This document shows, one piece after another, positions 4,090-13,099 of a stretch of 35,657 bases of DNA. Positions within the stretch are counted from its first letter, which is position 1; every line of letters begins with the position of its first letter. The notes below the pieces were generated by a model, which worked only from the letters and a program-made list of their open reading frames with translations, did no database searches and had not been told where the DNA came from. The translations under genes were made by a program, and so were the position numbers. The stretch is from a virus (taxonomy: Duplodnaviria; Heunggongvirae; Uroviricota; Caudoviricetes), in the IMG/VR virus record IMGVR_UViG_2541047892_000001; one strand, written 5' to 3'.

Positions 4090-4965
4090 TTAAATTACGA
4101 AAACCTTGACGATAAGTTCTCCGTCTTTAGAGACTCTCTTCCCCTCAAGATCAGATTTCAGCCCCTCAGAATTAGTAATAAGCTGGTTCGGATCGTAGAT
4201 GACACACCAGAGATTTTTGCAATCAGAGTGCCGACGATAATGCTCTATATCGATAATAAGTTCATCGCCGATTTTCTTTGCATGAGAACGATCACGAACA
4301 ATTTTGGTTTCCAGTACTAATTTATGCGCAGGTAACAAAAAATCCATTCGAGTACTTGAACCAGCGTAACTTGGAGTAAACTCTTCTGGGCGGATGTCCT
4401 GAACCCATGGTCTGAGCAATGCATGGAGAAGGTCTTGCACGTCATATTCATTGCTAAAAGATAATGACTGGCTTCCTTTTCGCCTATGAGTAAGTGGATG
4501 CATTGCTCGCTGTAAGCCTTTGACCAGCCTTTCCAGTAAGTTCTCAACTTTTTCTGGCATTACTGGCTGTTGATAAGTAATTATGGTCTCTGGGTAATCC
4601 ATATTGTGTGACGGGATGTGGCCTTCAGGCAACACTCGACCAAAACGATAATATCTAAGTCCATTCTCTTGTAACACAGCTTCAATTCTGTCTCGTTTTT
4701 CCTTCCATTCTGCATATTCGGGAGTACCTTCTTTTGGAGGTAAATCCATAAACTCCTCAATTACTCCGCCCAGAACTGCCAGACTATCTGTATCTGGATC
4801 TTGCCCTGCAAGAAATAACCAGTCTTTCCATTTTGTACTATGAGATCCTGCCGGAGGGTTTCCTGGTGCTCCCGAAGTAAGAAATAACGTATCTAAAGCT
4901 GCATGAGAGCCTGAGTTAGCAATGACATCGCCAACTACTTTACATAAGGATCTTGATAACCGCAT
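4090..4965 (-). CDS. Accessory (moron) protein with predicted C-terminal PD-(D/E)xK nuclease fold; candidate defence gene
   Basis: 291 aa ORF in an AT-rich island between two conserved baseplate genes; C-terminal NEYDVQDLL...RMDFLLPAHKLVLETKIV fits the E...D...ExK pattern; GGGGA ribosome-binding site 5-9 nt upstream of ATG. Confidence 0.6.
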   Translation of the reverse strand: MRLSRSLCKVVGDVIANSGSHAALDTLFLTSGAPGNPPAGSHSTKWKDWLFLAGQDPDTDSLAVLGGVIEEFMDLPPKEGTPEYAEWKEKRDRIEAVLQENGLRYYRFGRVLPEGHIPSHNMDYPETIITYQQPVMPEKVENLLERLVKGLQRAMHPLTHRRKGSQSLSFSNEYDVQDLLHALLRPWVQDIRPEEFTPSYAGSSTRMDFLLPAHKLVLETKIVRDRSHAKKIGDELIIDIEHYRRHSDCKNLWCVIYDPNQLITNSEGLKSDLEGKRVSKDGELIVKVFVI

Positions 4966-5046
4966 TTAAGTCCCCGCCAAATTAGTGTTAATTAAAAAAT
5001 TCTATCATATCCGCGGGAGAGGAAATGGAGTCACATACTTGAAAAA

Positions 5047-5559
5047 TTAGTGAGAGTGATGATTGGAATTCTGTCCATCTGCAAATATGTTACCAGTCGC
5101 ATGGGTACTCCCTTTGATTTCAAGATTGCCGTTCACCATGATAGTGTCAGCTGTCAAATCAATGGTTTTCCCTTTCAGACTAATACCCACTGCAACCTCG
5201 ATCACCACATGCTCGATACCTCCTTTGACCGTCAGCGTATGGGTCGCGCGGTCATAACTGAACTCCGCGCCATCAGCGTACTTCGTGCCCCGGACGTTTT
5301 TATCACCGAACGGCGGTTTATCGACGTCTGAGTACACCGCGCCCAGAATAACACCATCCTCGCCGTTGGCATCGAGCAGCACCTCAACCTGCTCCCCCAC
5401 GTCAGGGAGCCAGTAATCCTTGTTATCCTGGGTATTGCGCTGCAGCACGTTAAGCCAGTTTGTGCGCAGATTATCGCATTCAGGCAGACGAACGCGGGCC
5501 TGAACCCTGTCGGCATCAACGGCACTGACCGTACCGACCTGGCGGGTGACACCAGTCAT
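5047..5559 (-). CDS. Baseplate spike / assembly protein V (P2 gpV / Mu gp45)
   Basis: 170 aa; sequence and position typical of gpV. Confidence 0.85.
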   Translation of the reverse strand: MTGVTRQVGTVSAVDADRVQARVRLPECDNLRTNWLNVLQRNTQDNKDYWLPDVGEQVEVLLDANGEDGVILGAVYSDVDKPPFGDKNVRGTKYADGAEFSYDRATHTLTVKGGIEHVVIEVAVGISLKGKTIDLTADTIMVNGNLEIKGSTHATGNIFADGQNSNHHSH

Positions 5560-6910: not shown

Positions 6911-7794
6911 CACACACTCCTCGTCAGTATTCTGGCGACCATTGCACTTAATCCCGGAGACATGCGGTTGAATGCTGTGCCGGCGGCGTTAAGCTGCCCG
7001 GAAACGGTATCCAGAGCACCTGCAATATTTCTTTTGTCCACACCACTCAGCGCCGACTGCGCCTGCTGTACATACGTGGCTGCCTCACTGGCTGTTCTGG
7101 CCAGACTGATGGCATCGGGCATGGATTCAGAGAGTACATTAAACGCCGGAATACTTTTCCCCAGAGCGCCGGATATATTACCCAGTCCGCTCATCAGTCC
7201 CGGCACACGGGTCAGCGCGACAACGGGGTTACCCTTCATTTTCTGCGCCACCCGAACGGCACTGATGGTGGTCTGGAGTACAGACTGCGCCTGTTTCGCA
7301 TAGTTGACGCCGTTACGGACGAACTGCGCCACCCCGCAAGGCGATGGAACAGCACCAGATATGGCCCCGGCACCGGGAACCTGCCTGCGTATTGCCGGCG
7401 GTTGCAGAGGATTTTTCGGGTCACCGGTGTATTCCCGGAGAGACACGGTGGCACTGACAGCCAGCACGTTACCGGTGCTGTCTGTCTGCTCGCTGGTTGC
7501 GGTCACATCGGTAATCACGAACCAGCCGCGATAGTCACCGTTGCCGAAGACCAGCGCCAGTGCCTGATGGGCCTTCATGGCTGTTCGCACTCTCGCCAGC
7601 TCCACGTCGGGCACACAATAATGCTGATGGAAGACCAGGCTTATCTGGATTTCGTCCAGCCTGTCGCCGACGAACTGCAGGCCGGGTTTACCCTCGATGC
7701 GGGCATGCTCCGCATAATCGACGCCAAACGTGGCCTCGAAGCCGTCCCAGTAGGTAATCAGTTCAAACTCAATATCACCCAGTACGGCAAACAT
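6910..7794 (-). CDS. Tail protein, gpU / DNA-circularisation N-domain family (Mu gp43-like)
   Basis: 294 aa; N-terminal MFAVLGDIEFELITYWDG; directly downstream of the tape measure with ATGA overlap. Confidence 0.6.
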   Translation of the reverse strand: MFAVLGDIEFELITYWDGFEATFGVDYAEHARIEGKPGLQFVGDRLDEIQISLVFHQHYCVPDVELARVRTAMKAHQALALVFGNGDYRGWFVITDVTATSEQTDSTGNVLAVSATVSLREYTGDPKNPLQPPAIRRQVPGAGAISGAVPSPCGVAQFVRNGVNYAKQAQSVLQTTISAVRVAQKMKGNPVVALTRVPGLMSGLGNISGALGKSIPAFNVLSESMPDAISLARTASEAATYVQQAQSALSGVDKRNIAGALDTVSGQLNAAGTAFNRMSPGLSAMVARILTRSV

Positions 7795-10259
7795 CAGCTG
7801 TACTCCTTACGTTGTTTCTGAGCCAGCAGACGCTCCAGCATTTTTTCCAGCTCATGCAGGCTCATATTCAGGGCACCAGCCAGCCCGGCAGGCGCTGCGG
7901 TTTCCTTACCATTGAGGAAAAACTGAGGATTAAAGCTGACCTGGATACCGCCAGACGCTCCACCGCCGGTTGCAGTTGCGCCACGGCCTGAATATCCGGC
8001 AGCCATGATTTCCGGCGACGGGATACGGGGAACATCCGGTGTCATTTCAGCGGCCAGGCGCTGCCCGGCCAGTGCAGCAAGCGGAGTGGTCCGTTGCAGG
8101 CCAATGGCGGCACCCTGCGCGATATTGTCACCAAAGCCTATAAACACGCGACTCGGTGAATGGATGCCCAGCTTTTCGCTGAACCAGTCACTGATGCTGT
8201 CACCCATTCCGGTTATGCTGGTTTTCAGTGACGCCCATTTGTTTCTGATGCCATTTATCAGCCCGTCAATAAGATGACCACCGAAGTCGGTGAATTTCGC
8301 CGGCAAATCAACGCCGAGATATTTCAGCGCAGCCGCAAAGGCTTTATAAAGCAGACCTGCCGGAGACCAGTTAACCAGCAGTTTACCAATTCCCGCGATG
8401 CCGCCGTTAAAGGCTTCCTGAATGTCAGCCCAGCGCTGTTTAAACCAGCTACTGACAGCGCCCCAGTTGCGGTAGATAAGGTAAGCTGCTGCCGCGACGG
8501 CGGTGATAACGAGACCGATGGGATTCATCAGCAGCGCCCGGCCAATCCAGAGAACGGCACGCCCGGCGCTCATAATTCCGCGAACCAGCCCCCCTGAGAG
8601 CACACCCCCCAGTGTTCTGGTTCCTCTGGCGACGGCACCAAAGCCTGTCACCAGCCAGCGGAGTTTACCGCCTTCCCCCAGTGCGAGCATCAGACGAAGC
8701 CAGTTGGCCCGAAGTAAAACAGCATTTTTCCAGACGCTTACAAAGGGGGAAATAAGGAGATTCAGCCCAAACTTGAGACCGATAGTGGCCATCCTGAAAG
8801 CGAGTAATGCGCCCACAACCTTTATGGTGCTGCTGACGAGCTGCGGATTTGCCGCTATCCATTTGCCGACGCTGTCCATTAAAGGAATAAATGTTTCACC
8901 CAACTGGAGCAAAGCCGGACGCAAGGATTGCCCGATGCTGATAGCAGAATCATTAAAGCCGATCTGCATTCTGCGCCAGCGACCTTCAAGCGTATCATTC
9001 TGCTTTGCAGCATCCTTATCCAGGGTAGACATTGCAGCCGGAGCATTCATTTCCTGCTTACTGGAAAGGTATTTATCCCAGCCCTGTCGCATTGACAGTA
9101 AATGGTTGACAGTCTGAATATCGGTAAAGACCTCAGCCAGACCAAATGACTCCATGAGTTTCTGCTGACCTTCCTGATCGCCTCTTGCTCCTGCAGCTTT
9201 CCATTGCTGCAAAAACGCTTTGCCTTTACTGTCGATAAAACGGTTGGCAATCATCAGTGAAGCTTCGTACTGCGAAAAACCCTGAGCGACGTAATTCTGC
9301 ATTGACCCCTGGTAATCCACCCCGGCTTTAGCATATTTCTGGATGGTATCTCCGCGGCCCATTGCTGCCAGCCAGTTGGACATATTGGTGACCGCTTCCT
9401 CTGCAGAGCCACTACCTTTACCGACCTCCAGACTGGCAACAATCTGGGTAATCGCATCTTTTCCATAAATACCACGAGCAGCGAAGGCTTTCGCCATACC
9501 GGGTAATGCTTTTGCCATATCCTTCAGCTCAAATGACCCAAGTTTGGCTCCTGTTGCCGCAATGCCAAACGCCTGTTCAAGTTCTTTCGCATCAGTGATT
9601 CTGAGTGCATCGCTGAAGGCATAAGTCATTTTGGCAAGGTCGGTCATATCGGCTTTGGTTGCTGTAGCGGTCTTTCCAAGCATCTCTGCAAACGTTGCTG
9701 CCCGTTCGGGGGCCATACCATCAGCAACTAATTGTCCGACTCCCCCTAACAGAGACTCCTGCAGTTGGTTAACCTTCAGCGAGGCCTGTCTGATAGCCAG
9801 GCCAATTGCACGTTCCTGTTTTGCATCCAGGTCTCCTGTGACACTGATATCCCGCAACTGTGATTCAAACGAGGCATATTGTTTAACCGAGGCCATGACC
9901 GGTGCGCCCAGCGTTCTGCCAATAGCATAGGTTTCTGCACCCTGACCATAGAGCGCCAGGCGGTTAGCCTTCAACGCATCACCGGTGGCTGATACTGCTG
10001 ACAGACGGCGCTGCTGACGTTCAATTTGCTCCATGGTGCGGCTTACCCGCAGCAACTCGCTGTTGAGATGCTGCATCCGGGAAGAACCCAGTTGACCATA
10101 ACGTTCTGTTGCCCGGGTTAAGGCATTCTGGCGTTCCTGCAGACGGCGGGAGGTATCACCAAGGGAATCAAGGGCGCGTCGGGTGCCACTGACGGCTGAG
10201 CGGAAGCTGCTCCCGACAATGCCGCCAATAATGACGCCGACTGAAAATTCACTGGCCAC
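7794..10259 (-). CDS. Tail tape measure protein
   Basis: 821 aa, Ala/Gly-rich with coiled-coil N-part and hydrophobic central segments; GTG start preceded by GAGGA; position after the chaperone pair. Confidence 0.9.
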   Translation of the reverse strand: MASEFSVGVIIGGIVGSSFRSAVSGTRRALDSLGDTSRRLQERQNALTRATERYGQLGSSRMQHLNSELLRVSRTMEQIERQQRRLSAVSATGDALKANRLALYGQGAETYAIGRTLGAPVMASVKQYASFESQLRDISVTGDLDAKQERAIGLAIRQASLKVNQLQESLLGGVGQLVADGMAPERAATFAEMLGKTATATKADMTDLAKMTYAFSDALRITDAKELEQAFGIAATGAKLGSFELKDMAKALPGMAKAFAARGIYGKDAITQIVASLEVGKGSGSAEEAVTNMSNWLAAMGRGDTIQKYAKAGVDYQGSMQNYVAQGFSQYEASLMIANRFIDSKGKAFLQQWKAAGARGDQEGQQKLMESFGLAEVFTDIQTVNHLLSMRQGWDKYLSSKQEMNAPAAMSTLDKDAAKQNDTLEGRWRRMQIGFNDSAISIGQSLRPALLQLGETFIPLMDSVGKWIAANPQLVSSTIKVVGALLAFRMATIGLKFGLNLLISPFVSVWKNAVLLRANWLRLMLALGEGGKLRWLVTGFGAVARGTRTLGGVLSGGLVRGIMSAGRAVLWIGRALLMNPIGLVITAVAAAAYLIYRNWGAVSSWFKQRWADIQEAFNGGIAGIGKLLVNWSPAGLLYKAFAAALKYLGVDLPAKFTDFGGHLIDGLINGIRNKWASLKTSITGMGDSISDWFSEKLGIHSPSRVFIGFGDNIAQGAAIGLQRTTPLAALAGQRLAAEMTPDVPRIPSPEIMAAGYSGRGATATGGGASGGIQVSFNPQFFLNGKETAAPAGLAGALNMSLHELEKMLERLLAQKQRKEYS

Positions 10260-10351: not shown

Positions 10352-10609
10352 TTACTGATTGTCGCCGAACTCGCTTTTGATTTGCTCTTCAGCCTGCTCC
10401 AGCCACATCTCCAGATCGTCAGTATCGAGGGCATCAATCTCCCCCGGCTGAAACCTGAACCATCTCGCCAGCAGGCCCTGCGCCTGCATCAGTGTTTTTG
10501 TCGCTCTTGCCCAGCCCAGTGATTTTCTGAAATCGTTTCTGCAGCTCCATATAGTCGGCAAGATCCATGTTATCGAGGTCTTCCGGGAGGATACCGGTGC
10601 TACGGGCAA
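10352..10609 (-). CDS. Frameshift extension of the tail assembly chaperone (E' part of an E+E' fusion)
   Basis: Second frame opens inside the chaperone gene and extends 82 nt beyond its stop; codon positions show it is +1 (equivalently -2) relative to E; the G-run GGGGG (10441..10445) sits just before the E stop. Confidence 0.5.
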   Translation of the reverse strand: MPVAPVSSRKTSITWILPTIWSCRNDFRKSLGWARATKTLMQAQGLLARWFRFQPGEIDALDTDDLEMWLEQAEEQIKSEFGDNQ

Positions 10610-10775
10610 TCAGTGGTTCGTCCCAGTCTGCCGGGTCTTTGTTGATTTTGCGCACCTGCTTCAGGTCTTTTACTGTCAGGCGTTTCAGTTCAATCTGTTC
10701 AATTCTGGTACCTGCAGCAGTGGTGAAAGGATAAGACAGCGTAAAAGTATCGGACTGGGTCTGTGACATGATCAT
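10434..10775 (-). CDS. Tail assembly chaperone (gpE-like)
   Basis: 113 aa directly upstream of the tape measure; AAGGAG precedes the second ATG (10769); overlapped by an extension ORF in another frame. Confidence 0.7.
   Translation of the reverse strand: MIMSQTQSDTFTLSYPFTTAAGTRIEQIELKRLTVKDLKQVRKINKDPADWDEPLIARSTGILPEDLDNMDLADYMELQKRFQKITGLGKSDKNTDAGAGPAGEMVQVSAGGD
10437..10445 (-). other. Putative programmed frameshift site (G-rich run before the chaperone stop codon)
   Basis: Minus-strand ...GCC GGG GGA GAT TGA; the only homopolymeric run in the E/E' overlap close to the stop. Confidence 0.35.
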
Positions 10776-10866: not shown

Positions 10867-11148
10867 TCAGCAAGTGCGAAAACCCTTGCAGTTACGCAGG
10901 AAAGCGATGAGAAGCGCCTTTCCCTCAGATTTGCCGATGCCGGAGAACCAGTGGTCGGGCGGCTCCCATGCTTCAATCAAATCGGCCAGTTTGCGGGCCT
11001 TTGAACGTGTGCAGTCAATCGGGTCATTGGTTTTACGGGTATTAAAAAGGGTTTCCACCCCCGGAATATCAAGGAGGGTAAACCACGTACCATTTGACAT
11101 GCCCAGTGACGCACATCGCCCTCCTTTGTCAGTCAGTTCAACACTCAC
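10867..11148 (-). CDS. Hypothetical small Cys-containing protein between tail tube and chaperone
   Basis: 93 aa ORF with GTG start 2 nt after the tube stop; no recognisable family; not AT-rich. Confidence 0.35.
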   Translation of the reverse strand: MSVELTDKGGRCASLGMSNGTWFTLLDIPGVETLFNTRKTNDPIDCTRSKARKLADLIEAWEPPDHWFSGIGKSEGKALLIAFLRNCKGFRTC

Positions 11149-11150
11149 CG

Positions 11151-11672
11151 TCAGCCCCCGATATTGATCCGATAGTCAGTCAGTTGATCAACGCCACCGA
11201 CGCGGAAGATGTTGGCCAGATAGTCCAGTTGCAGCAACTCTTCACCATCCAGTACCTGTCTGATATACGTGCAGGTGAAGCTACTGGAGAACTCGGCGTT
11301 CTCGTGCTGTTTAAACGTCCCCAGCGGGTTCTTCTTGAACATAATTGTCAGGAAGGTGACCAGCGGGATTTCGTCGATCAGCCCCTGCGAGCTGTAGCGC
11401 TGGACGCTGGAGCGACACTGCAGCGCCAGCGACTTGTACGGGTTCGCGGCAGACAGCATCGCATCGCGGTAAAAGCTGTTCCATTTGATTTCGCCTTCCA
11501 GTTTGTCAAAACCAGCCGGGAGTTCCACCTTACCCACCATCCCCAGTGCCTTGTGTTCCTGCATAATCATGGAGACATCGGGGAGTTTAACCTCCTCAGC
11601 CCGTCCCAGCAGGTTAGTACCATCCAGATAGATGTTGGCATTCGTGATTCGGTTTATCTCAATCTTTGACAT
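11151..11672 (-). CDS. Major tail tube protein (P2 FII / Mu M-like)
   Basis: 173 aa; N-terminal MSKIEINRITNANIYLDGTNLLGRAEEVKLP is typical of contractile-tail tube proteins; immediately follows the sheath. Confidence 0.9.
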   Translation of the reverse strand: MSKIEINRITNANIYLDGTNLLGRAEEVKLPDVSMIMQEHKALGMVGKVELPAGFDKLEGEIKWNSFYRDAMLSAANPYKSLALQCRSSVQRYSSQGLIDEIPLVTFLTIMFKKNPLGTFKQHENAEFSSSFTCTYIRQVLDGEELLQLDYLANIFRVGGVDQLTDYRINIGG

Positions 11673-13099
11673 CAGTTGCCCCCTTTCAGGGTTAACAGGT
11701 ATTCCGAGGTGATCTCAGTCTCAAACGTCAGTCGCTCCAGCGGCGGTGGTGGCGTATATTTGTAGCTCAGCAACAGGTGCCCGGCGGCCAGCTCCGTTTC
11801 CGGATTGCGGGCCGGATCAAACCAGCAACGGAAGCCCAGTACCGCGCCATCACCAGTCATTTTGCGACCGTAGGCGTTGACCGACTCCGTCAGTGCATCA
11901 ATCAGCGCCTGAGTAATCGGCATGTCGATGTACTGCTGGCTGAAGTAACGAATGGACTCATTGATCACATCACCGGTGCGGCGAACGTTCTCAAAGTTAC
12001 GCATATGGGTGACCGTTGGCCATGCTGCCGTCCGGTTACCCCACAGACGAAGGCCGCTGCCGTAACTGCTGAATACCGTGGTGATCCCCTGTTCGTTAAG
12101 CAGGTTCACCTCGCTCTGCGGATCGTCAATCATTGCCGACAGCTGGCGCTCCACGCCGGTGATCCCCAGAATTTCCTGATTTGAGGATGACCACCAGTAC
12201 CCTTTGTCCAGGTCGACTTTGGCACGCAGGCCCGCCGCACGCTGGCTCAGTGGCTCCAGACGTTCCGTGTTCGTCACCGGGTCATATACCTTCACATGCG
12301 GGTAGCACAGGCGGACACGGTCAGAGCTGGTATTAAAGTTAATGGTGCCTTCCGGGCCTCGTCCCGCCAGAGCCTGCGCAAAAGTGGTACCAACCGGCGC
12401 ATCAATATAGGTTACTGCTCCCAGTTTCTCAGCCATGGCGATAAGCTCAACCGAGACGCTGTTCTGGGTGCAGAATACCGGAGCAATCAGGATTTTGGCG
12501 AAGTAGCCAAACAGGTTAAAACTGTCGTTAAGCAGCTTCATGCCGGTACGGTTGCCTGCAGCGTTAACGGTACCGATGATATCAGCCGGGGTGACTTTGG
12601 TCGGATCAGCATAGTTATAGCTGGCCTTCACCGTTGCATCTGCAGCAATGCTTTTACCCAGGTTAGTAATCACCCCGGTCTGTGCATCAAGCGAGTAGTC
12701 CTGACCTTCAACATAAGGCTGACCGTCGCTGTCCGGTTTCAGTACCAGCTGCGCGACCACCGGATTAGCCAGCCGGGCTCTGCCTGTCGCCTTGTCGAAC
12801 GACACATTCTCACTGACCACAGCGGTTTTATGCACAGACGGATCGAGTACGTTAATGACCAGAACGGTGCCTGCACCATGGTCATAAATCGCATCCAGCG
12901 CCTGTGGAATGGTAAAGCCGGTGAACTGGCTGCCAAATGCCGCAGCGTCTTTCTCAGACAGGCACTGTACCAGCGTATTGACATCCCCCATTGGTGCGGT
13001 ACCAATCAGGCCAATAACGGCAGATTTCACCGTTTTAACCGGGCGGGCACCGTTTTCCACTTCAATGGTTTCCGGACCATGCAGATAGTTAGCTGACAT
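11672..13099 (-). CDS. Tail sheath protein (P2 FI / Mu L-like)
   Basis: 475 aa; typical sheath length and sequence; followed by the tube gene. Confidence 0.9.
   Translation of the reverse strand: MSANYLHGPETIEVENGARPVKTVKSAVIGLIGTAPMGDVNTLVQCLSEKDAAAFGSQFTGFTIPQALDAIYDHGAGTVLVINVLDPSVHKTAVVSENVSFDKATGRARLANPVVAQLVLKPDSDGQPYVEGQDYSLDAQTGVITNLGKSIAADATVKASYNYADPTKVTPADIIGTVNAAGNRTGMKLLNDSFNLFGYFAKILIAPVFCTQNSVSVELIAMAEKLGAVTYIDAPVGTTFAQALAGRGPEGTINFNTSSDRVRLCYPHVKVYDPVTNTERLEPLSQRAAGLRAKVDLDKGYWWSSSNQEILGITGVERQLSAMIDDPQSEVNLLNEQGITTVFSSYGSGLRLWGNRTAAWPTVTHMRNFENVRRTGDVINESIRYFSQQYIDMPITQALIDALTESVNAYGRKMTGDGAVLGFRCWFDPARNPETELAAGHLLLSYKYTPPPPLERLTFETEITSEYLLTLKGGN

Follow-up and report, generated by a model that had tools for sequence, protein, structure and literature searches.

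Evidence for a probable +1 frameshift at a conserved UUU_C in the tail assembly chaperone genes of BcepMu-like prophages

Frameshifting in phage tail assembly chaperone genes is a textbook example of recoding, with -1 the direction in nearly all characterised cases. Xu, Hendrix and Duda reportedly described in 2004 both lambda G/GT-type frameshifted tail chaperone pairs and a -2 frameshift in phage Mu. Here we analyse a chaperone gene of this kind, together with the extension frame that overlaps it, in a 35,657-nucleotide stretch of tailed-phage DNA (IMG/VR record IMGVR_UViG_2541047892_000001; the whole stretch is referred to below as the window), which is a BcepMu-like transposable prophage of E. 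coli with a P2-type tail module. An earlier reading of the window by a model that saw only its letters and open reading frames (ORFs), hereafter the original prediction, had pointed to a run of five G just before the chaperone stop codon as the slippery element. The feature is a tail chaperone frameshift of the ordinary kind in a less common form, unannotated and family-wide, in which the shift into the +1 frame probably takes place at a UUU_C lying about 30 codons upstream of the G-run, at the end of the conserved chaperone domain.

Several described systems bear on this locus. Phage lambda makes gpG and gpGT, two products with a common N-terminus whose genes precede that of the tape measure, by a -1 shift on the heptamer G_GGA_AAG, at a G:GT ratio of about 30:1 (PMC5009743). 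In P2, gpE and gpE+E' are encoded between the tube and tape measure genes, and the -1 site, T_TTT_TTG, is annotated (AF063097). The record of the transposable phage Mu (AF083977; Mu_56) annotates a -2 frameshift as verified, citing PMID 15469818, at a site that reads GAA CGG GGG CGA (CGG_GGG_CGA), and Mu is listed among the -2 cases (PMC5009743). As for +1 shifts, UUU_Ynn is described as particularly liable to undergo them in bacteria, even without a stop codon, and as the site apparently used in the Yersinia YopN-TyeA fusion (PMC5009743); UUU is also the shift codon in a rhizobial integrative and conjugative element, and UCC_UUU_CGU is the +1 site of influenza PA-X, proven by mass spectrometry (PMC3498833).

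The window's pair occupies the canonical chaperone position between the tube and tape measure genes (Table 1). The chaperone matches PF10109 over residues 10-84 with 79.8 bits against a cut-off of 25, and a Pfam search returned no other domain in it. Codons of the extension ORF, which runs from 10609 to 10352 and overlaps the chaperone ORF by 176 nt, begin one base 3' of the chaperone codons, placing it in the +1 (equivalently -2) frame: where the chaperone ends ...GCC GGG GGA GAT TGA, with its stop at 10436..10434, the extension reads ...CAG CCG GGG GAG ATT GAT.... In this the original prediction was borne out, the domain match, ORF coordinates and gene position supporting a chaperone with an overlapping extension ORF, and the codon positions supporting a +1/-2 rather than a -1 frame. 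It was also right to call this direction less common, as +1 and -2 shifts are rarer than -1 among characterised cases, Mu being one that uses -2. The chaperone probably starts at the second ATG, at 10769 (giving 111 aa, and 138 aa for the fusion described below), since an AAGGAG Shine-Dalgarno sequence lies 7 nt from this ATG (and 1 nt from the ATG at 10775) and since RefSeq CDS WP_000084227.1, of 111 aa, begins there.

We collected relatives of this pair from IMG/VR (78 + 18 + 17 loci), GTDB genomes (41 loci) and phage records. The GTDB scan was built on a 3-sequence alignment and used two search patterns, one of which ends in 'RF' and so may be biased towards Phe, with no bias to TTT over TTC. 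Together with the window, these loci contain 108 unique chaperone/extension junctions, in which the extension lies in the +1 frame in 101 and in the -1 frame in 4, while 3 are fused in one frame; the comparison with homologous phages that the original prediction had proposed as a check supports the +1 assignment. Frame-specific selection was measured by Nei-Gojobori counts in 58 unique close relatives, and positions along the gene are given as p, the 0-based offset from ATG 10775.

This analysis revealed that the +1 ORF is a real coding sequence rather than a chance ORF. Upstream of a conserved TTT codon, pN/pS is 0.21 in frame 0 and 1.45 in the +1 frame, and the part of the +1 ORF upstream of 10528 is open by chance, without selection in that frame. 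Past the TTT, three successive segments have +1-frame pN/pS values of 0.42, 0.01 and 0.38. In the conserved core of the +1 ORF, the 14 codons just 5' of the G-run (10481-10440), the +1 frame has pS=0.315 and pN=0.003 (pN/pS 0.01) while frame 0 has pS=0.000 and pN=0.114, every change being non-synonymous in frame 0; purifying selection acts strongly on these codons in the +1 frame and not at all in frame 0. Per-codon counts place the passage of coding behaviour from frame 0 to +1 at p~255-262 (window about 10520-10513). Frame 0 is coding-like up to about p=258, as at an ACN position with four codons for one amino acid, and the +1 frame is coding-like from about p=259 (window ~10517-10516). Purifying selection in the +1 frame starts between about 10516 and 10481, and the shift very probably takes place upstream of 10481. 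The stretch of the chaperone after about 10515 is an unconstrained frame-0 tail, and in the relatives the chaperone stops at 90, 104/106 or 111/113 aa.

Translation of the extension on its own from an internal start codon, with no fusion product, is most improbable. Gene callers and PHROGs do list it as a small gene of its own (PHROG 8286; gp42 of BcepMu), and the +1 ORF of the window offers a TTG at 10609 and an ATG at 'TLMQ', but no +1-frame ATG, GTG or TTG position is common to more than 28 of 74 unique relatives. Furthermore, there are 20 unique loci, belonging to Ralstonia, Pandoraea, Undibacterium, Verminephrobacter and Pseudomonas, in which a stop leaves the +1 frame open from only 8 nt 5' of the TTT (elsewhere the opening point varies), and the homologous E' of P2 is annotated as a -1 frameshift fusion.

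The shift is bounded on the 5' side by the late opening of the +1 frame in those 20 loci, and on the 3' side by frame-0 stops that lie 9-11 codons past the TTT in locus L147 and in an E. coli variant with a 90-aa chaperone. Within these bounds, the only nucleotides conserved in every +1-type junction form an in-frame TTT with a C after it. This TTT_C occurs exactly once, at the homologous position, in all 101 unique +1-type junctions; in the window it is part of CGA_TTT_CAG, with UUU at 10532..10530 and C at 10529, and CGATTTCA is the only fully invariant block of the overlap among the 58 close relatives. The codon after TTT is CAG, CTG, CGG, CAA, CGC, CTT or CAT, so that its amino acid varies (Gln, Leu, Arg or His) and its first base is always C. 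Control Phe positions in the same genes have TTT/TTC counts of 11/68, 34/32 and 59/4, against TTT_C at 79 of 80 junction Phe codons, the remaining one belonging to a hard-wired fusion; and TTT persists at the junction in loci with a GC content of about 60%, where its share of Phe codons is 0-0.22. Since control Phe codons mix TTT and TTC, high-GC hosts retain TTT and the C is invariant, UUU_C is conserved at the nucleotide level beyond the protein requirement. The original prediction had called the G-run the only obvious slippery element, which holds by eye, but the in-frame UUU_C at 10532..10529 belongs to the tetranucleotides recognised as prone to +1 shifts and is the one that is conserved.

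One locus encodes the long form directly. In L089 (Apirhabdus apintestini CP138906, about 1201-1627) the chaperone and extension are fused in one ORF through the loss of 1 nt, five codons ahead of the TTT (GAC TAT CTG G-GC TGC AGA CCC GAT TTC), a hard-wired long form joined almost exactly at the proposed +1 position. This fusion may be a genuine variant, or it may reflect prophage decay or a mistake in assembly.

From these comparisons we infer slippage at UUU_C, its ribosomal nature, its +1 direction, its low efficiency and a role for the product in assembly; that +1 ribosomal slippage at UUU_C makes a long form of the chaperone is, in our assessment, likely. Most ribosomes would stay in frame 0 and produce the 111/113-aa chaperone, while a minority would move +1 at CGA_UUU_CAG (10535..10527), the peptidyl-tRNA-Phe (anticodon GAA) leaving UUU and re-pairing one base 3' on UUC (10531..10529). 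Decoding would then resume with AGA AAA UCA... and continue up to the stop at 10354..10352. In a variant that would give the same protein, CGA would occupy the P site and Phe-tRNA would bind UUC directly out of frame. A -2 slip at UUU_C has no re-pairing option, the codons two bases back being GAU, UGU or CCU. The predicted product, M...LQKRF followed by RKSLGWARATKTLMQAQGLLARWFRFQPGEIDALDTDDLEMWLEQAEEQIKSEFGDNQ (58 aa), would be 140 aa long from ATG 10775 or 138 aa from ATG 10769 and would consist of the PF10109 chaperone domain and a 58-aa E'-like domain; it would be the counterpart of P2 gpE+E' and lambda gpGT and, by analogy, may bridge the tape measure protein and the tube subunit in tail assembly. 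The efficiency is expected to be low because the A-site CAG is not rare and no stimulator was found, which would fit a small need for the long form, as in lambda.

Several observations weigh against this placement. The four +1 codons right after TTC are without visible constraint, and so the comparison confines the shift to about 10535-10516 without pinning it to one codon. The junction Phe is conserved as an amino acid too, and the relatives share a phylogeny, so that counts of junctions are not counts of independent events. In E. coli the codon in the A site of frame 0 is CAG, which is not rare. No conserved RNA structure was detected downstream (RNAalifold on 18 diverse junctions gave 3 pairs and no covariation), the fold of the window sequence is unremarkable (z=-0.59), there is no Rfam match, and a reading of the aligned junctions found no consistent Shine-Dalgarno-like sequence upstream. 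In addition, the GenBank record of BcepMu (AY539836) proposes a different slippage, from gp42 to gp43.

A real +1 shift at a phage-specific site a few codons past UUU_C, such as AAA_A (10526..10523) or GGG_C (10517..10514), would also account for the unconstrained +1 codons at 10528-10517, and in the window and a few relatives, which have CAG AAA ATC, tRNA-Lys could slip +1 on the four A. We consider this unlikely, though less so than the other alternatives: most close relatives have CAG CAA GTC or CAG CTC ATC in place of the AAAA, the GGG is GGC in locus L081, and neither candidate spans the clades, whereas TTT_C is present at 101 of 101 junctions.

With regard to structure, a 7-bp hairpin beginning 3 nt past the UUU was seen in loci L085 (1732-1751), L114 and L118, from Salmonella, Superficieibacter and Dryocola prophages. 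It is perfect in the form GCCATGC-TTA-GCATGGC, keeps its pairing through a G:U in L114 (GCCATGC-TTG-GCGTGGC) and is missing from the E. coli clade; it may lie too near the P site to act as a stimulator.

In the BcepMu record, gp42, which is the +1 ORF, is named as the analogue of lambda 'G' and gp43 as its slippage product. The slip candidate in BcepMu (L088, locus 4603-5364) is UCC_UUU_CGC at 4819-4827, nearly identical to the influenza PA-X site UCC_UUU_CGU. Because TTT_C is conserved and because of the selection pattern in the E. coli-clade relatives, the sequences suggest that in BcepMu, too, the shift would lead from gp41 to gp42 by +1 at UCC_UUU_CGC instead of from gp42 to gp43.

In 86 of the 101 unique +1-type relatives the UUU comes directly after CGA, and in only one after CGG. 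CGA is rare, making up 6% of Arg codons in the long ORFs of the window and 0-1 of 33-36 in several relatives. This pattern suggests that the I:A-wobble tRNA-Arg on CGA has a role in the shift, and it may act either through a weak E-site tRNA or through out-of-frame binding of Phe-tRNA with CGA in the P site. A broader proposal is that a +1 shift at NNN_UUU_C operates throughout a clade of phages and prophages with P2-type tails, among them BcepMu-like elements of Escherichia, Salmonella, Klebsiella, Pectobacterium, Burkholderia, Ralstonia and Pseudomonas, perhaps with CGA as a 5' stimulator, and that within one family the recoding signal has been swapped, at nearly the same codon, between -1 (U_UUU_UUY, G_GGA_AAG) and +1 (UUU_C). 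We put this forward tentatively, as a possibility that is rather doubtful as a whole.

The G-run itself was a reasonable first guess, because Mu reaches the same relative frame on a G5 run. The original prediction located it exactly, at 10441..10445 and two codons ahead of the chaperone stop, inside the overlap, and a tRNA-Gly could re-pair on it. A Mu-like -2 or +1 slip of tRNA-Gly on GGG_GGA (10445..10440) would give a junction reading ...VSAG(G)EIDALDTDDLEMW.... We nevertheless regard this as very improbable, and the G-run was rejected as the slip site on four grounds: conservation, frame-0 stops, frame-specific selection and domain homology. Among the 99 unique +1-type relatives in which it was scored, GGGGG is present at the Pro-x-Glu codons in 39 and missing in 60. 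It is replaced by CCT GGG GAG or CCA GGG GAG in close relatives and by CCG AGT GAG in most other clades, all of these changes being synonymous or conservative in the +1 frame, where the run is simply CCG GGG GAG, a Pro-Gly-Glu inside the E'-like domain. A frame-0 stop precedes the place of the G-run in 31 of the 99, and ribosomes in that frame therefore never arrive there in those relatives. This is the case in Klebsiella phage KP12 and in many E. coli, Salmonella and Klebsiella prophages, which read ...GAG GTG GTT TAG ATT TCA GCC GGG GGA and have a chaperone of 104/106 aa; a frame-0 stop giving a 90-aa chaperone is another common E. coli variant, and in this variant and in locus L147 the stop lies 9-11 codons 3' of the TTT. 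The 14 codons just 5' of the run, conserved in the +1 frame, form the N-terminal half of the P2 E'-homologous domain (hhalign), the front half that a shift on the run would remove. Owing to the conservation, stops, selection and homology found there, ribosomes would already be in the +1 frame well ahead of the G-run.

Mu and the window resemble one another in that both encode a transposable myovirus chaperone with an extension in the +1/-2 frame and a G5 run. They differ in family, the Mu chaperone belonging to PF23746 (Gp41_Mu; gp41 9e-35) and that of the window matching PF10109 only, and the extension profile shows no homology to the Mu extension (probability 0.6%). The G-run is the slip site in Mu, whereas in the window it is an unconserved by-product of Pro-Gly-Glu codons that frame-0 ribosomes do not reach in all relatives. 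Locus L147 (IMG/VR 2645727892_000010, overlap about 1149-1241) reads TGC TTT CGC AAG ATG CGG GGG GAT GAC AAC TAA, with a run of eight G in CGG_GGG_GAT four codons past TTT_C that recalls the Mu -2 site; here TTT_C and the G-run could each give the +1 frame.

Public assemblies also hold genes for 138-aa 'fused' proteins with G4 in place of G5, which might point to transcriptional slippage or DNA-level variation at the homopolymer as the source of the long form. The ones we checked were G5-to-G4 contractions and were rejected as natural fusions at the G-run. Because the same contigs (L165-L170, Logan contigs that encode P0011) carry truncated tape measure genes, of 122-579 aa against 821, the GGGG versions probably arose from read errors at the homopolymer. 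In further 'fusions' from the database (P0015, P0068 and P0102) the frame switches at scattered positions. The arguments from conservation, stops, selection and domain apply to this explanation as well, and runs known to support RNA polymerase slippage are much longer than T3 or G5; we consider it extremely unlikely, the least probable of the alternatives.

The relatives with a -1 extension show how the same comparison performs where the answer is known. TTT_C is missing from these -1-type homologues, whose junctions instead carry a canonical -1 heptamer, which is G_GGA_AAG in three loci from Pasteurellaceae, T_TTT_TTC in locus L164 and T_TTT_TTG in P2. Since they show textbook heptamers at the junction, the comparative approach recovers the right signal in these cases. 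Judging by the aligned junctions, the family appears to have exchanged both slip signal and direction at essentially the same position.

The extension itself is related to E' of P2. A profile of 13 extensions aligned to P2 E' with an hhalign probability of 94.8% (E=4.9e-8, 35 columns) over the stretch QAQGLLARWFRFQPGEIDALDTDDLEMWLEQAEEQ, in which the G-run (QPGE) lies mid-domain. Since the single-sequence match of the fusion to PF06528 (Phage_P2_GpE; residues 102-134) scores 17.4 bits, below the threshold of 23, membership of the E' family rests on this profile comparison. P2 E+E' matches PF10109 at E=1.3e-12, and PHROG 8286 matches the extension at E=3e-32. Thus gene order (tube, chaperone, tape measure), chaperone domain and extension are all shared with P2, and in P2, as proposed for the window, the frame changes on a U-tract Phe codon where PF10109 reaches its C-terminal end. 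The difference lies in the signal: P2 uses -1 on the heptamer U_UUU_UUG, while the window would use +1 on the tetranucleotide UUU_C and has no U6-7 tract. Unlike in P2, the frame-0 tail past the site is long (about 29 codons) and evolutionarily free, the relatives stopping at three positions. The window's chaperone is homologous to P2 E+E' as a protein and different in recoding mechanism.

With lambda the locus would share the logic of two products with a common N-terminus encoded before the tape measure gene: it has the position, an overlapping second ORF without a conserved start and a conserved slippery sequence in the overlap. The direction and the site differ, the conserved overlap site being of a +1 type and not an X_XXY_YYZ heptamer, and no sequence relationship was found between the window's pair and lambda G or T; the lambda heptamer G_GGA_AAG is nonetheless the one used by the Pasteurellaceae homologues of the window's family. 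The bacterial UUU_Y sites and PA-X provide a mechanistic parallel. Like them, the window has an in-frame UUU followed by a pyrimidine, conserved as nucleotides beyond what the protein needs, and the re-pairing of tRNA-Phe from UUU to UUC with a low-level fusion product is what we propose for the window. It differs from them in its protein context, a phage tail chaperone, and in that its E. coli version has no rare A-site codon or known stimulator; the rare CGA before the UUU is in turn absent as a feature from the UUU_Y and PA-X systems.

The assignment of the window to BcepMu-like elements follows from its closest phage records, Klebsiella phage KP12, Escherichia phage Phi06_2974 B and Escherichia phage PhiKM, the last of which is classified in Bcepmuvirus. 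Prophages in several complete E. coli genomes match its 5.3-kb tail block at 100% identity, and E. coli ATCC 43896 and WS3294A carry an identical region; 643 of 5,426 complete E. coli genomes show some match to this query, mostly at 80-90% identity, and at least 80% of it is covered in 52 genomes. The 93-aa ORF between the tube and chaperone genes (10867-11148) matches DUF7739 weakly, at 25.7 bits where the cut-off is 27, and its counterpart is kept as a 'hypothetical protein' in KP12, PhiKM and RefSeq prophages. In this the window differs from the P2 record, where no gene is annotated between FII and E.

Table 1. Features of the tail module around the chaperone/extension pair (window coordinates)
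Feature	Position	Strand	Evidence
Tail sheath gene	11672..13099	-	PF04984 + PF17482
Tail tube gene (P2 FII-like)	11151..11672	-	PF04985 E=2.1e-53
93-aa ORF	10867..11148	-	Between tube and chaperone genes
Tail assembly chaperone, frame 0, 113 aa from ATG 10775	10434..10775	-	PF10109 Phage_TAC_7 E=1.5e-22
Overlapping 85-aa ORF, +1 frame	10352..10609	-	ORF list
Proposed +1 slip site CGA_UUU_CAG	10527..10535	-	TTT_C conservation among relatives
+1-frame segment that would be decoded post-shift, 58 aa, E'-like domain	10352..10528	-	Stop 10354..10352
GGGGG run, coding part of Pro-Gly-Glu in +1 frame	10441..10445	-	
Tape measure gene, 821 aa, directly downstream of chaperone/extension	7794..10259	-	PF10145 E=2.2e-15; RefSeq 'phage tail tape measure protein'

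Current annotation reflects only the short form. RefSeq lists a 'phage tail assembly protein' of 111 aa and leaves 10352-10433 without annotation, the records of KP12, PhiKM and BcepMu contain no joined CDS, and the feature names of the other matches list separate genes only; in PHROGs the extension is a separate family with its function given as unknown. No description of a +1 site in BcepMu-like chaperones was found in the open-access literature, subscription papers lying outside the search.

If the shift takes place where we place it, a widespread prophage family would reach its essential long chaperone by +1, at a minimal UUU_C site that is easily overlooked, and annotation pipelines and frameshift predictors should allow for UUU_C +1 sites in PF10109 chaperones. 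The locus also illustrates that a conspicuous homopolymer in an overlap need not be the slip site, and that comparing selection frame by frame can place a slip site within a few codons without experiments. With -1 heptamers present in homologues at the same position, the family may be a good subject for work on the evolutionary exchange of frameshift signals. Should a +1 shift at NNN_UUU_C hold throughout the clade, these elements would offer a natural system for the evolution of frameshift direction and a bacterial counterpart of the influenza PA-X UCC_UUU_CGN cassette.

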